A DNA stretch of 63,618 nucleotides, the filler included. It is 5 parts of 5 records of this genome, joined end to end, with 100 filler letters (N's around TTAATTAATTAA, not from the genome) between each part and the next. Parts side by side here need not be neighbours in the genome. Positions count along the whole stretch, not along the records: positions 38,570 to 58,317 come from SRR22947725_621; 4 more parts are not named here. One strand, given 5' to 3'. The notes beneath the pieces are model-generated. The model did no database searches. It was not told the DNA's origin and was given only the letters and a program-made list of their open reading frames with translations. The translations under genes and the position numbers were made by a program. Shown here piece after piece: positions 37 to 58,417 of this stretch; position 1 is the first letter of the stretch; each line of letters begins with the position of its first letter.

Positions 37-44
37 TATATTTG
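37..44 (+). promoter_or_regulatory. Bacteroidetes-type -7 promoter element (TATATTTG)
   Basis: Exact match to the TAnnTTTG consensus, 30 nt before the GTG start at 74. Confidence 0.6.
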
Positions 45-73
45 CGTGAACAAGTTTTATTAGTTAAAAAATA

Positions 74-841
74 GTGAGTACTCTAAAACACATTGAAAGA
101 AACGGATTTAAATATACAGTCGGTGGCAAAGGAAATCCTATAATTGTATTACATGGGCTTATGGGAGGCTTAGGAAACTTTAAAGATTTTCTAGAAAAAT
201 TTCAAACTTTAGGTTATCAAGTATTTATGCCTGAATTACCAATCTATTCTGCTTCACTTCTAAATACAAATGTTAAATATTTCGCAAAATTTATTAATGA
301 TTTTGTTCAAGAATTAAATTTAAATAAAGTAATTCTAGTTGGTAATTCTTTAGGTGGACATGTTGCATTAGTACATGCTAAACTATTTCCTTCAAACACA
401 AAAGCTTTAGTTTTAACGGGTAGCTCTGGTTTATATGAGAATGCAATGGGTGACACTTATCCAAGAAGAGGTGATTATGAATTTATAAAAAATAAAACCC
501 AAAATGTTTTTTATTCGCCTGAAATAGCAACTAAAGAAGTAGTTGACGAAGTATTTGAAGCGGTTAATGATAGAAGAAAAGTTTTAAAAATTTTAGCAGT
601 TGCAAAAAGTGCAATAAGACACAATATGGCTAAAGATCTCCCTAATATTAGTATACCTACAGCACTAATTTGGGGTAAAAATGATGAAGTCACACCTCCA
701 GATGTTGCAAATGAATTTGACAAATTACTGCCGAATTCTAAACTCTTTTGGTTTGAAAAATGTGGTCATGCTCCAATGATGGAACATCCAGAAAAATTTA
801 ATTCGACTGTGCATGATTGGCTCATAGAAAAAAAACTATGA
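74..841 (+). CDS. Alpha/beta-fold hydrolase
   Basis: HGLMG oxyanion motif, GNSLGG nucleophile elbow, WGxxD acid, GHAP catalytic His. Confidence 0.9.
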   Translation: MSTLKHIERNGFKYTVGGKGNPIIVLHGLMGGLGNFKDFLEKFQTLGYQVFMPELPIYSASLLNTNVKYFAKFINDFVQELNLNKVILVGNSLGGHVALVHAKLFPSNTKALVLTGSSGLYENAMGDTYPRRGDYEFIKNKTQNVFYSPEIATKEVVDEVFEAVNDRRKVLKILAVAKSAIRHNMAKDLPNISIPTALIWGKNDEVTPPDVANEFDKLLPNSKLFWFEKCGHAPMMEHPEKFNSTVHDWLIEKKL

Positions 842-20332: not shown

Positions 20333-20432
20333 NNNNNNNNNNNNNNNNNNNNNNNNNNNNNNNNNNNNNNNNNNNNTTAATTAATTAANNNNNNNNNNNN
20401 NNNNNNNNNNNNNNNNNNNNNNNNNNNNNNNN
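20333..20432. other. Artificial contig spacer
   Basis: 44 N + TTAATTAATTAA (stops in all six frames) + 44 N. Confidence 0.99.
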
Positions 20433-26680: not shown

Positions 26681-26780
26681 NNNNNNNNNNNNNNNNNNNN
26701 NNNNNNNNNNNNNNNNNNNNNNNNTTAATTAATTAANNNNNNNNNNNNNNNNNNNNNNNNNNNNNNNNNNNNNNNNNNNN
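26681..26780. other. Artificial contig spacer
   Basis: N run + TTAATTAATTAA + N run. Confidence 0.99.
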
Positions 26781-38469: not shown

Positions 38470-38569
38470 NNNNNNNNNNNNNNNNNNNNNNNNNNNNNNN
38501 NNNNNNNNNNNNNTTAATTAATTAANNNNNNNNNNNNNNNNNNNNNNNNNNNNNNNNNNNNNNNNNNNN
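38470..38569. other. Artificial contig spacer
   Basis: N run + TTAATTAATTAA + N run. Confidence 0.99.
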
Positions 38570-44208: not shown

Positions 44209-44889
44209 TTACTCGGCTTCCCAGATCTTTATGTGGTCTATATAAACAGCACTTCCTTTGTTGCCAACCAGATTGATTTTACCGCGTCTGGGTTTGGTGA
44301 GGAAACTGTCGCTGGAGCCCTTCAAAGTAGGGCCACCTTCGATTTGGACACAGAAGTTCTTGCCCTTTATTTCCATAAGAAAAGTACAGTAGCTATCTTT
44401 TCCAAGGGTCCAGGGATCTTCGGCCAGTGTTTCTGTGTTAATATTTGCATACATGATCGTTTTATCCAACTTAAAGTTGATGCGGGCATTATGCGTACCC
44501 AGCTCAATCATGCGACAGAATGAATAATTGAGGTCTTGCCCTCCAGTAAATTTCACACTCATTTCAATGATGGTGTGGTTGGGAGTCTTGTAGAAGTTAA
44601 GGCGTGGATATTGTCCATTGTGAGAACGGCCCGCTTTTTTGTTTCCTTTGTCTTTTTGTTCTGCGGCAATTTGTTTACGGGTTTCATCGCTTGTCGGTCG
44701 CCCAACGACTTTACCGTTTTCTACCTGCCATGTCGTTTTTTGAACAGTCTTCCACTTTTCGGGATCAAGAGGCTTGTTGTTTTCGAAGTCTCGAGCAAAA
44801 ACGAGCTTGCCTTTTTGACTGATGAGAGGGTCTAGAGCTTGCGATGAAAGCGTTAAGGTCGTTAAGAGTAGGCTGAAAAATTTAATCAT
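44209..44889 (-). CDS. Secreted protein with probable concanavalin-A-like (DUF1080-like) beta-sandwich
   Basis: Signal peptide, G.LVF..DFE, WQVENG.V.G, C-terminal V.ID.IKIW. Confidence 0.6.
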   Translation of the reverse strand: MIKFFSLLLTTLTLSSQALDPLISQKGKLVFARDFENNKPLDPEKWKTVQKTTWQVENGKVVGRPTSDETRKQIAAEQKDKGNKKAGRSHNGQYPRLNFYKTPNHTIIEMSVKFTGGQDLNYSFCRMIELGTHNARINFKLDKTIMYANINTETLAEDPWTLGKDSYCTFLMEIKGKNFCVQIEGGPTLKGSSDSFLTKPRRGKINLVGNKGSAVYIDHIKIWEAE

Positions 44890-44944
44890 GTTTATTCCTC
44901 GATAATTATCAAGCAATTCGCACGTGACTTAAAGAACCTAATAG

Positions 44945-46933
44945 CTAGTTGACTTTAATGATCTTAATTTTGGAGTTTAGTTTGCCGTCAAAGTGACTGG
45001 AATTGGTATGGATTTCTTTAAGGCTCTTTAATTTACGAATTTCCTGAGGGGGGATACGCATATCCTTGGCGATTAAAGCGTCGATCGGTGCTGCCGAGAG
45101 AACACCAACGTCTTTTACATGAGTACCTGATATATCGAGCTTATTAATTGCTAAGAGCCTTAAAGCTTCGATGGAGACTAATTGGCTGTACCCAGAAAGG
45201 TCGATACTGAGTTTACCATCAGCAGTCTTTTCATACTTCAGTTGAAAGCCATTATTCAATCTAGGGTTCATTTGTTTTAAAGTGAAATTAGCAATTTCCA
45301 TCTTCTGTTGAAGGCTATAATATTGTTCGAGGTAGGCCGCATTGGCGAGGTACTTGACGTATGGTCTGGGAGGCTTATCTGGTGTATAGAGGTTCTGGGA
45401 GTCTTTGAGGAAGTTTAACAGCTGGGTAACAGGAAGTCTAAGTTCATCATCCTTTTTAATATTTAAGTATTTATCAAGTACTAAACGATGCTTCCTTGGG
45501 AAAGAGTGGTTCCCCGGCAGGGATTTAAAGAGCTTATTCGCTTCATCGAATTTTTGCGTCATGAACAAGAAGTGAGCTTTGTATCTAAAAGCCTCATGGT
45601 TTTCTGGATCGAGAGAAACGGCCATTTCAATATTGTTAAAAGCTGATGCGAATTTGAAGTTTAAAAAGTCATCGATCGCGACTTTTAAAAATCGAGGGCT
45701 GGCGCTTTTGCTTATTTCTTCACGCTTTTGCCTGGCTTCATCAGCTAGTTTTTTTTGTGATACAGCTTCTGATTTCTGTTCTTCTGCTATTTGTCGTTGA
45801 TGGATGGCGTTATTCCTTTGAGTCTCAGCTCTTTCTTTTTCTTGATAAATCTTTAAAGTGAAAATGAGAGAGCCACACAGAATAAGCGCGAGTAAAGCAC
45901 TGACTTGTTTATGCCTTTTAAGTAGATATAAAAACGATTTTAAGAAACTATTTTTTTCAGCCGATGTCATGAACCCACCCTGAAACTTCTTGAGGTCATT
46001 TTTTAGATCTGCAACACAGAGGTAGCGTTCAGCCTTATCGACTGCCAGGGCTTTATAAATAATAGATTCTAAACTTGAAGGGGTGTGGCCTTGTTTGTTT
46101 GGGCTTAAGGTCACTTCTTGTAGAGTTGATTTTAAAACGCCTTCAAGTTTTGAACCTGGGTGAAGTTTTTCCAAATAAAGCATTTCATAGAGTAGGGCGC
46201 CGAGTGCGTAGATGTCACTTTGCTCATCAGTGAGGCCAATAGTTTTATCAATTTGTTCGGGAGACATATAGCCAGGAGTTCCCTTGATATAACCATCCAA
46301 GGTCTGTAACGCCGATGCTTTATCTTTGTAGAGTGAGTCTAGCTCTGCACCTTCCTCACCAGTAACTTTTGCCAACCCCCAATCGCCGACGAGAACTTCA
46401 CCGAACTCACCTAGATAAATATTTTCCGGCTTGAGGTCTCTATGGATAATTCCATTGGAATGGGCAAAGGCCATAGCATCACAAATTTTACTAAATATCT
46501 CCAGCCTTTGCTGATAGTCGTGGTTTTCGTTGCTTTGTGAGTCCAAGAAAGTTTTTAAAGTATCTTGGCCGACGGGTTTCATGGTAAAAAAAGCTTCACC
46601 TTGTTCATTATAACCCGCATCATAAACCGGAATGATATTCGGATGTTGTAGTCTTGCTGTCAGCCTCGCTTCGAGAAAAAATTGCTCTGTTTGGTCGAGG
46701 TCATTTACTTCTATGAGTTTGGCGAGGGCTACTTTTCGATCTGTGACGGCGTCTTGGGCCAAAGTAACCTGTTTCATGGCACCTTGGCCAAGTTTAGAAC
46801 CTTCTTGGTAACGCTCGTCGCGTTTCATCTCTCGACTTATGGGGAAGTCATTTTCAGGGTCGTCATCTTCCAGCATTTTACTGATGTTCGGAATGACTTT
46901 CATGTATTGATGTTCCGGTTCCAGGTCGGACAT
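44945..46933 (-). CDS. Membrane Ser/Thr protein kinase (WNK-like lysine placement) with TM, coiled coil, TPR-like and LRR-like C-terminus
   Basis: GQGAMK, EAR..ARLQHPNI, HRDLKPEN, DWG, GTPGYMSPEQ, DIYALG; TM VSALLALILCGSLIFTL; LDISGT-type repeats. Confidence 0.92.
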   Translation of the reverse strand: MSDLEPEHQYMKVIPNISKMLEDDDPENDFPISREMKRDERYQEGSKLGQGAMKQVTLAQDAVTDRKVALAKLIEVNDLDQTEQFFLEARLTARLQHPNIIPVYDAGYNEQGEAFFTMKPVGQDTLKTFLDSQSNENHDYQQRLEIFSKICDAMAFAHSNGIIHRDLKPENIYLGEFGEVLVGDWGLAKVTGEEGAELDSLYKDKASALQTLDGYIKGTPGYMSPEQIDKTIGLTDEQSDIYALGALLYEMLYLEKLHPGSKLEGVLKSTLQEVTLSPNKQGHTPSSLESIIYKALAVDKAERYLCVADLKNDLKKFQGGFMTSAEKNSFLKSFLYLLKRHKQVSALLALILCGSLIFTLKIYQEKERAETQRNNAIHQRQIAEEQKSEAVSQKKLADEARQKREEISKSASPRFLKVAIDDFLNFKFASAFNNIEMAVSLDPENHEAFRYKAHFLFMTQKFDEANKLFKSLPGNHSFPRKHRLVLDKYLNIKKDDELRLPVTQLLNFLKDSQNLYTPDKPPRPYVKYLANAAYLEQYYSLQQKMEIANFTLKQMNPRLNNGFQLKYEKTADGKLSIDLSGYSQLVSIEALRLLAINKLDISGTHVKDVGVLSAAPIDALIAKDMRIPPQEIRKLKSLKEIHTNSSHFDGKLNSKIKIIKVN

Positions 46934-46934
46934 A

Positions 46935-47534
46935 CTAGCCTTCCAGGTCGTTTTGTAAGCGTCTTAATTCATCTTTAAGTTTAGTGCGAATGCGTTTGCG
47001 GTAAACATAAACAACATCGGGCTGTAACTCATATTCTTTTTCAAGGTCTTTGGCTTTTTCTCCTGCTGCCATACGCATGAATATTTCGATGGACTTCTCG
47101 GAGAAGTGTGGCTTGATATTGGCTAACGCTTTTGTCGTGAGGTAATCATTCCATTCAGCATTGGCAATGGCCTCTATCTCAGGGAGTTTTGAGGTCCAGC
47201 TTTCTTCTTTAAAGTTTTCTTTGAGCTTGTTTGAAGAAGCGACTTTGCGAAAGAAGTCGATGGAAGTGTTTTGAATAATGCGGCATAGCCAACTGCGAAA
47301 GCGTTTAGTCTCATCGTAATCAAAGTCTGGGAATTTCTTCCACAATTTGAGCAGTACCTGTTGGACGATATCGTTGGCATCGTGATGGCTGAGGTTCATT
47401 TTACAGCAAATGAGGTAAATGAAGTCTTTGTAATAATGAACAAATTCATCCCATGTCTTCTCATCGCGTTGTTGAGTGATGCGATGTAGAAGGGTGGCTC
47501 TTGTTAAATAAGTTTCGTTTAAATCTTTATCCAT
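46935..47534 (-). CDS. ECF sigma-70 factor of the PVC kinase-associated type
   Basis: TRATLL, W.EFV..Y, DANDIVQ, FRSWL, VY....R motifs; 1 nt from the kinase start. Confidence 0.9.
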   Translation of the reverse strand: MDKDLNETYLTRATLLHRITQQRDEKTWDEFVHYYKDFIYLICCKMNLSHHDANDIVQQVLLKLWKKFPDFDYDETKRFRSWLCRIIQNTSIDFFRKVASSNKLKENFKEESWTSKLPEIEAIANAEWNDYLTTKALANIKPHFSEKSIEIFMRMAAGEKAKDLEKEYELQPDVVYVYRKRIRTKLKDELRRLQNDLEG

Positions 47535-47809
47535 ATTTAAAGGGTATTCCTTTTGAGAAATGAATGCAAGAAGGATGAGCTTAAGCGGTCCGTAAAGATT
47601 CATAGAATTCTATATGTTTATACAACGTCAAATACGACAGCCTTTTTGACATAGGGACACAAAAGCCCAATAATAACTAATGAGATTTTCCTTATTCATT
47701 CAAACTGTCATTGTAAATATCGGTGTTTCTAGTTGAGACCTAGACATGTTTGTTTAATTTTTTCGACTACTATGTAAGAAAGGTAATTAGCTTTAAAGAA
47801 GGGGGTTGA

Positions 47810-58317: not shown

Positions 58318-58417
58318 NNNNNNNNNNNNNNNNNNNNNNNNNNNNNNNNNNNNNNNNNNNNTTAATTAATTAANNNNNNNNNNNNNNNNNNNNNNNNNNN
58401 NNNNNNNNNNNNNNNNN
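58318..58417. other. Artificial contig spacer
   Basis: N run + TTAATTAATTAA + N run. Confidence 0.99.

Follow-up and report, generated by a model that had tools for sequence, protein, structure and literature searches.

A conserved glycine-loop lysine suggests a WNK-like active site in a sigma-coupled receptor kinase family of PVC bacteria

Introduction

Whether a bacterial protein kinase can do without the lysine of its third β-strand (β3) is the question raised by a gene in the window, the 63,618-nucleotide (nt) stretch of DNA analyzed here. The β3 lysine of the VAIK motif is routinely mutated for "kinase-dead" controls, and its absence is among the three criteria by which proteins are labeled pseudokinases. 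The gene, in the part of the window that comes from SRR22947725_621, encodes a receptor Ser/Thr kinase and lies beside a gene for an extracytoplasmic function (ECF)-type sigma factor. A preliminary description of the DNA read an alanine (A71) at the β3 lysine position and a lysine (K54) at the third glycine of the glycine loop, and proposed a bacterial counterpart of the eukaryotic WNK ("with no lysine") kinases.

In WNK kinases, the lysine sits at position 55 in PKA numbering (K233 in WNK1), where PKA has G55, the last glycine of GxGxFG; catalysis requires this lysine, which contacts ATP (PMC1821047, PMC4718504). A 2007 survey gives WNKs as the only functional eukaryotic protein kinase (ePK) family without a β3 lysine (PMC1821047). 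We propose that the gene encodes an active single-pass membrane kinase of the Hanks/PknB type, in which the lysine was relocated throughout a clade and catalysis proceeds via K54. Sequence comparison leads us to give this reading a probability of about three in four.

Results

Alanine occupies the β3 lysine position. Canonical relatives of the kinase read R-x-V-A-x-K at β3, and the clade to which it belongs reads R-x-V-A-x-A. The residues that flank the lysine position are common to both classes: R66 is kept in 159 of 160 relocated-lysine domains and 140 of 149 canonical ones, A69 is kept in the same proportions (159/160 and 140/149), and V68 is retained as well. Because R66, V68, and A69 are shared, A71 is the positional equivalent of the β3 lysine. 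The invariant β3 lysine of Hanks-type kinases is accordingly missing from the query, which has A71, and from every clade member examined, 160 of 160 having Ala or Gly. Codons and flanking anchors both agree with the gap-free N-lobe alignment of the preliminary description, with A71 at the β3 lysine and K54 at the third glycine. The other motifs that it listed are also present: the αC glutamate E88, HRDLKPEN, DWG, and GTPGYMSPEQ (residues 218 to 227) are intact in the query.

The exchange is fixed in a clade. The query was aligned to 255 proteins, drawn from the 120 top hits of a search with the whole protein and the 150 top cluster representatives of a search with the kinase domain. The alignment gave 364 domain hits, and the 320 with the N-lobe covered, from 252 proteins, were used for counts. 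Position 54 is lysine in all 160 domains of the relocated-lysine group, and position 71 is alanine in 158 of them and glycine in 2. The canonical group (149 domains) has the β3 lysine and, at position 54, glycine in 111 domains, alanine in 20, serine in 14, and another residue in 4, but never lysine; 16 of the 149 were counted as canonical only after a one-residue gap shift. The remaining 11 domains are degenerate and vary at both positions. None of the 320 domains has both lysines.

The rest of the active site is retained in the clade. E88, the aspartate of HxD, and DW(G) are each found in 160 of 160 domains, and an alignment of 110 family sequences has 23 invariant columns, among them K54, E88, H164, D166, K168, N171, D184, W185, G186, and E226. 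Within the glycine loop, the first glycine is often Asn, Ala, or Asp (Gly in 49 of 160), the second is kept in 159 of 160, and Met precedes the lysine in 126 of 160. Kinase-domain identity within the clade has a median of 45% and falls to 35%, and since the pattern is fixed in 160 of 160 members as little as 35% identical, it does not reflect chance. Moreover, position 71 has not merely lost its lysine but is confined to the two smallest residues, which would be expected if another side chain filled the space. Judged from these alignments, the swap is a fixed trait of the clade and not decay. The earlier view that the protein is no decayed pseudokinase is thereby strengthened, as the catalytic residues other than the β3 lysine are invariant across the clade.

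The trait has a single origin among bacterial kinases. In a FastTree phylogeny of 307 kinase domains, in which WNK sequences were not included, the trait changes once, and the clade is one branch with a support of 99 (97 without the columns of residues 54, 71, and 72). The neighboring group consists of 10 canonical kinases with N-terminal FHA domains (GGMG ... VAMK, HRD, DWG). Because the clade branches from within canonical bacterial kinases, its likeness to WNK has arisen by convergence, as the preliminary description held: the nearest relatives are canonical bacterial kinases of the PknB type, and the tree neighbors, in this tree without WNK sequences, are canonical bacterial DWG kinases and do not point to common descent with WNK. 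WNK was likewise absent from the best 60 of 1722 sequence matches in the PDB, which included PknB, Stk1, StkP, GCN2, NEK, PknA, PDK1, and others. It was also absent from the 50 VIA-align entries and the Foldseek matches listed, which does not exclude similarity of fold. The kinase fold is common to all protein kinases.

The clade is broad. Named sources in the protein search were Lentisphaera profundi, L. marina, L. araneosa, and metagenome-assembled genomes (MAGs) of Lentisphaeraceae and Lentisphaerales. A scan of genome contigs used patterns that are not clade specific; it gave at least 600 stretches, of which 80 loci were kept, and the taxonomic range is thus a minimum. Eleven of the 80 loci hold clade members, from Lentisphaera marina, Victivallis vadensis, MAGs of Lentisphaeria and Lentisphaeraceae, Pontiella and Pontiellaceae (two loci), three Verrucomicrobiota MAGs, and a Chthoniobacter MAG. 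Canonical kinases make up the other 69 loci, which come from Planctomycetota, Myxococcota, Acidobacteriota, and others. By this sequence-based assignment, the clade is large and spans Lentisphaerota, Kiritimatiellota, and Verrucomicrobiota. The relatives thus come from phyla of the Planctomycetota-Verrucomicrobiota-Chlamydiota (PVC) lineage, in keeping with the lineage first suggested.

Departures from both patterns also occurred in the data set. Many top-scoring canonical relatives (P0122, P0123, P0147, P0168, and others) are giant proteins with two to six tandem kinase domains, and some of these tandem domains are degenerate, with HGN, HMN, or GGW motifs and His, Ile, or Gln at β3. In one Verrucomicrobiota MAG, a second kinase-like open reading frame (ORF) lies downstream of a clade kinase (L019:5948-6685, plus strand) and has a glycine-loop lysine (YGMK), VAMV at β3, and AWG for DWG. 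This ORF probably encodes a degenerate paralogue that arose from the relocated-lysine type and is a true pseudokinase. Two further loci, L062 and L033, were taken up as odd kinases and rejected, being on reading canonical kinases with insertions.

The kinase domain is closest to PknB. Pfam Pkinase (PF00069) matches residues 42 to 306 with an E value of 2.9e-37 and 128.9 bits, against a gathering cutoff of 31.7. An AlphaFold2 (AF2) model built with 110 family sequences as input had a mean pLDDT (predicted local distance difference test) of 87.6 and a pTM (predicted template modeling score) of 0.85, and DSSP assigned β1 to residues 42 to 50, β2 to 54 to 61, β3 to 67 to 73, and αC to 79 to 94. 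The model superimposed on Mycobacterium tuberculosis PknB by VIA-align with a Z score of 31.8 and a root mean square deviation of 1.7 to 1.9 Å over 252 to 258 residues, and PknB was also the best Foldseek match (E value, 3e-20). By sequence (phmmer), the nearest solved structures were M. tuberculosis PknB (E value, 8e-32), S. aureus Stk1, and S. pneumoniae StkP. The window kinase and PknB are 33 to 34% identical over about 250 residues and share the glycine-loop Met and the plan of kinase domain, transmembrane helix, and extracytoplasmic sensor. They differ in that PknB has GxGGMS/G with VAVK, whereas the window kinase has lysine in the glycine loop, alanine at β3, DWG instead of DFG, and no PASTA domains.

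The protein is laid out like a bacterial receptor kinase. Coordinates of the features are collected in Table 1. The part beyond the membrane helix is presumed, from its position in the sequence, to be an extracytoplasmic sensor; its TPR_19 match is weak and below cutoff (E value, 0.0087), and some homologues are annotated with LRR_4 (PF12799) and tetratricopeptide repeat (TPR) families. If this topology holds, the kinase domain, single membrane helix, and sensor would form the usual layout of bacterial receptor kinases.

Table 1. Kinase and sigma factor features and their coordinates in the window
Feature	Coordinates	Strand	Basis
ECF-type sigma factor gene	46935..47603	-	Sigma70_r2 E 1.2e-15; TIGR02937 sigma70-ECF 65.2 bits vs cutoff 42.9
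Receptor Ser/Thr kinase gene, 662 aa	44945..46933	-	ORF; stop codon 44945-44947; full-length homologues 57% identical
Kinase domain, aa 39-327	45953..46819	-	AF2 model and VIA-align to M. tuberculosis PknB (model range 39..319/327)
Segment L48-L73: glycine loop, β2, hairpin, β3; reads LGQGAMKQVTLAQDAVTDRKVALAKL	46715..46792	-	Exact translation
K54, third-glycine position of GxGxxG, first residue of β2; proposed ATP-anchoring lysine	46772..46774	-	Conservation and AF2 model
A71, at canonical β3 (VAIK) lysine position	46721..46723	-	Register from R66, V68, A69
K72, one residue past β3 lysine position; not conserved	46718..46720	-	Family alignment
E88, αC glutamate; presumed salt-bridge partner of K54	46670..46672	-	In model helix 79-94; invariant
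Catalytic loop HRDLKPEN, H164-N171	46421..46444	-	H164, D166, K168, N171 invariant in 110-sequence alignment
DWG (D184-W185-G186), metal-binding motif, Trp for Phe	46376..46384	-	All three invariant in 110-sequence alignment
Predicted single transmembrane helix, aa 344-362	45848..45904	-	Top 19-residue Kyte-Doolittle window, mean 2.25
C-terminal part, aa 363-662: charged helical stretch, TPR-like region, leucine-rich-repeat-like tail	44948..45847	-	Position past membrane helix

The kinase gene is paired with a sigma factor gene. The sigma gene stops 1 nt ahead of the kinase ATG, and there is no anti-sigma gene between them; the ECF association noted in the preliminary description is borne out by this arrangement. 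As listed, the sigma ORF begins with M1 and a hydrophobic leader of 23 residues, and six orthologues start 8 to 10 residues before a T-R-x-T-L-L motif. The true start is probably M24, at 47534, which by comparison with the orthologues would give a protein of about 199 residues. The N-terminal T-R-x-T-L-L motif contains a Thr that is invariant in the sigma and the six orthologues and is a possible target of the kinase, as far as conservation can suggest one. Similar N termini occur in many ECF sigmas that have no kinase. In region 2.2, both aspartates of the DxxD motif, D51 and D54, are invariant across all seven sigmas (DAND in the window). Prediction of a complex of kinase residues 36 to 335 with the sigma, ATP, and Mg scored 0.00, which is no answer and evidence neither way.

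Sigma genes also neighbor other kinases. A close homologue of the window's sigma adjoins 7 of the 11 clade kinases in the contig loci, and in 5 of these loci the sigma gene is immediately upstream in the same orientation. In a first screen (phmmer; E value, ≤1e-3), sigma neighbors were found at 7 of 11 clade loci versus 0 of 69 canonical loci. A more sensitive sigma profile found weak ECF-like ORFs (E values, 3e-10 to 7e-5) beside 12 canonical DWG kinases, mostly directly upstream, which led us to give up the notion that only the clade has sigma coupling. Among these loci, what is restricted to the clade is the closely related sigma family (≥91 bits) and not sigma coupling as such, in agreement with the known ECF/kinase groups. 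The 12 canonical sigma-kinase loci (L036, L037, L040, L044, L045, L055, L063, L072, L076, L077, L080, and L065) belong to Acidobacteriota, Gemmatimonadota, and one Planctomycetota MAG and have a normal β3 lysine.

Discussion

How a kinase of this clade might hold ATP is suggested by the residues that never vary. In the ancestor of the clade, the ATP-anchoring lysine would have moved from β3 to the third-glycine position at the start of β2. From there, K54 would reach under the glycine loop, hold the α and β phosphates of ATP, and pair with E88 of αC, and the β3 position would be kept small (Ala or Gly) to make room for the K54 side chain. Eukaryotic WNKs would have reached the same solution independently. 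The kinase and the ECF sigma are probably cotranscribed, and a signal at the sensor domain would probably lead to phosphorylation of the adjacent sigma or of other substrates, a step that we draw solely from gene order and the precedent of sigma/kinase pairs.

The resemblance to WNK lies in the active site. Both kinases have a lysine at the third-glycine position (K233 in WNK1, K54 here) and a small residue other than lysine at β3 (Cys250 and A71, respectively), and both retain the αC glutamate, the HRD aspartate, and the DxG aspartate. K54 was equated with WNK1 K233 and PKA G55 through the text of PMC1821047 and not by an aligned WNK sequence. On that footing, K54 and A71 show what defines a WNK, a lysine at the third-glycine position in β2 and none in β3. 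In sequence and fold, however, the window kinase is closest to bacterial PknB. It has DWG where WNK has DLG, and alanine instead of cysteine at β3. It also has a membrane helix and a TPR/leucine-rich repeat (LRR)-like sensor and lacks the WNK accessory domains, and most members of its clade have HLD.

Other known families look different. The CAK-chloro subfamily (choline/aminoglycoside type; Kannan et al. 2007) comprises small-molecule kinases with, in PKA numbering, Arg at position 55, Met at 72, and Phe in place of the αC glutamate, whereas the window family is a true protein kinase (Pkinase) in which Lys occupies position 55, Ala occupies position 72, and the glutamate is retained. The bacterial Ser/Thr kinase (bSTK) Atlas describes seven pseudokinase families (ActPs1-3, GLW, CP1, DYD, and DLHK). 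Their traits include VALT, LLLL/W with GLW, Arg at β3, and loss of the HRD or DFG aspartate, and they are actinobacterial, proteobacterial, or cyanobacterial. Compared by those descriptions, the window kinase matches none of them, as it has VA-x-A with HxD, the Asn, and DWG intact and occurs in PVC phyla.

A functional precedent is ECF43. In the pairs EcfP-PknT of Vibrio parahaemolyticus and EcfK-PknS of Xanthomonas citri, the kinase phosphorylates the sigma directly; the sigma lacks the acidic DAED/DxxD of region 2.2, and a phospho-Thr added there by the kinase supplies the charge (PMC13147305, PMC8999054). The window pair is alike in that an ECF sigma gene is coupled directly to the gene of a membrane-bound Hanks-type kinase and no anti-sigma gene intervenes, an arrangement also seen in five other clade loci. 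It differs in both proteins: PknS is described as fully canonical with a GxGGMG motif (PMC13147305), whereas the window kinase has the relocated lysine, and ECF43 sigmas lack DxxD, whereas the window sigma and its six orthologues retain it.

Several points weigh against an active kinase that uses K54. The relatives were picked by similarity to the query, and more distant clade members could differ. K54 had been expected to covary with loss of the β3 lysine, and the association is indeed perfect (160/160 versus 0/149), but it stems from a single event on the tree and not from repeated correlated change. What is seen is thus one synapomorphy, kept in place by purifying selection, and not a statistical covariation. 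HLD replaces HRD in 143 of the 160 clade domains, the query being among the 16 with HRD (R165, 46439-46441), and this is unusual: HLD is rare in canonical relatives (8 of 149), and the HRD/HLD state changes eight times inside the clade. Activity is nonetheless possible in non-RD kinases. Under the customary sequence-based definition, given in the Atlas preprint, a kinase that has lost the β3 (VAIK) lysine counts as a pseudokinase, and the query would qualify. Finally, the sigma keeps DxxD, and therefore the phospho-Thr mechanism of ECF43 does not simply apply.

The loss of the β3 lysine, the criterion by which bacterial pseudokinases are annotated, together with that of the HRD arginine in most clade members would suit a conserved pseudokinase that binds nucleotide or partners without phosphotransfer. 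Such a protein could be, for example, a membrane-bound, anti-sigma-like scaffold that holds and releases the sigma. A sigma that keeps DxxD should bind core RNA polymerase intrinsically, and it might need restraint and not activation (PMC8999054). We nevertheless consider a pseudokinase unlikely. D166, K168, N171, D184, G186, E88, and E226, the P+1/APE-type glutamate, are all invariant, and such residues are missing from degenerate domains among the same sequences (HGN, GGW, and AWG, for example). Moreover, if the ATP site still needs a lysine, K54 should be invariant and residue 71 always small, as is the case.

Could an active kinase of this kind sense salt? The unusual placement of the lysine in WNK1 is proposed to let a halide bind at the rear of the nucleotide pocket (PMC4718504, PMC7606576), and the preliminary description suggested an anion- or salt-sensing pocket that would suit a marine organism. 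A halide in the vacated β3 space would then inhibit autophosphorylation as in WNK1. The β3 residue is small here, and the nearest named relatives are marine Lentisphaera. The chloride pocket of WNK1, however, uses Leu369 of DLG, and L369F alone abolishes chloride sensitivity (PMC7606576). The equivalent residue is W185, which is invariant in the clade and bulkier than Phe, and at this position the WNK pocket is thus not reproduced. Trp follows the Asp in 160 of 160 clade domains and also in 88 of 149 canonical relatives, and therefore it predates the swap and was not gained with it. In addition, the clade includes the non-marine Victivallis vadensis and Chthoniobacter and is not confined to marine bacteria, and the protein carries a large presumed sensor of its own past the membrane helix. 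We regard chloride sensing by the active site as very improbable.

That K72 is the real catalytic lysine, with a hairpin one residue longer, VALAK as a shifted VAIK, and K54 incidental, is hardly credible: phmmer put the PknB lysine on K72 in three of five printed alignments (on A71 in the other two), and hairpin length does vary, the 16 gap-shifted canonical domains being a case in point, but R66, V68, and A69 set the register, K54 is invariant (160/160), and position 72 is Lys in just 24 of 160 clade domains (otherwise V31, T21, Q13, I12, S10, F9, R9, L9, E8, and others), which means that K72 is not a shifted catalytic lysine and leaves K54, as first proposed, the conserved one of the two.

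The searchable literature, a scope outside of which supplementary family tables lie, yielded no account of a WNK-type protein kinase in bacteria, and the preliminary description knew of none either. In their available text, the 2025 Atlas and its accompanying review hold no pseudokinase family with VA-x-A, a glycine-loop lysine, intact HxD/DxG, and a PVC range, and they name WNK only as a eukaryotic analogy. We lean toward the view that the sigma-coupled receptor kinases of the clade, a family found across the PVC phyla, are active by way of a glycine-loop lysine and represent an independent bacterial WNK active site in a true protein-kinase family. An active PVC family would contradict the claim that WNKs alone function without a β3 lysine. 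The clade would also be a natural second example in which to find the other changes that relocation requires, the candidates being the small β3 residue and the absence of the HRD arginine from most members. The clade would caution against motif-based annotation of pseudokinases in bacterial kinomes, and it would define a family-specific active site in a sigma-coupled signaling module common in Lentisphaerota, Kiritimatiellota, and Verrucomicrobiota.

Other features of the window

The kinase and sigma genes stand alone of their kind, in that the 63,618 nt hold no further kinase gene and no further sigma gene. The nearest of the genomes compared, G001 (1.3 Mb in 80 contigs), has 34% of the window's sampled words in common with it and gave no Pkinase match; this genome may be a highly incomplete assembly from the same organism or a close one. 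The four joints between parts of the window (20333-20432, 26681-26780, 38470-38569, and 58318-58417) each read as 44 N, 12 readable bases, and 44 N, for 352 N in total. Finally, a short gap 3' of the kinase gene separates it from an ORF of 235 residues with the same orientation (44209-44916, minus strand). This ORF has a signal-peptide-like N terminus and no Pfam match, and it may belong to the same operon as the kinase or be a target of the sigma.

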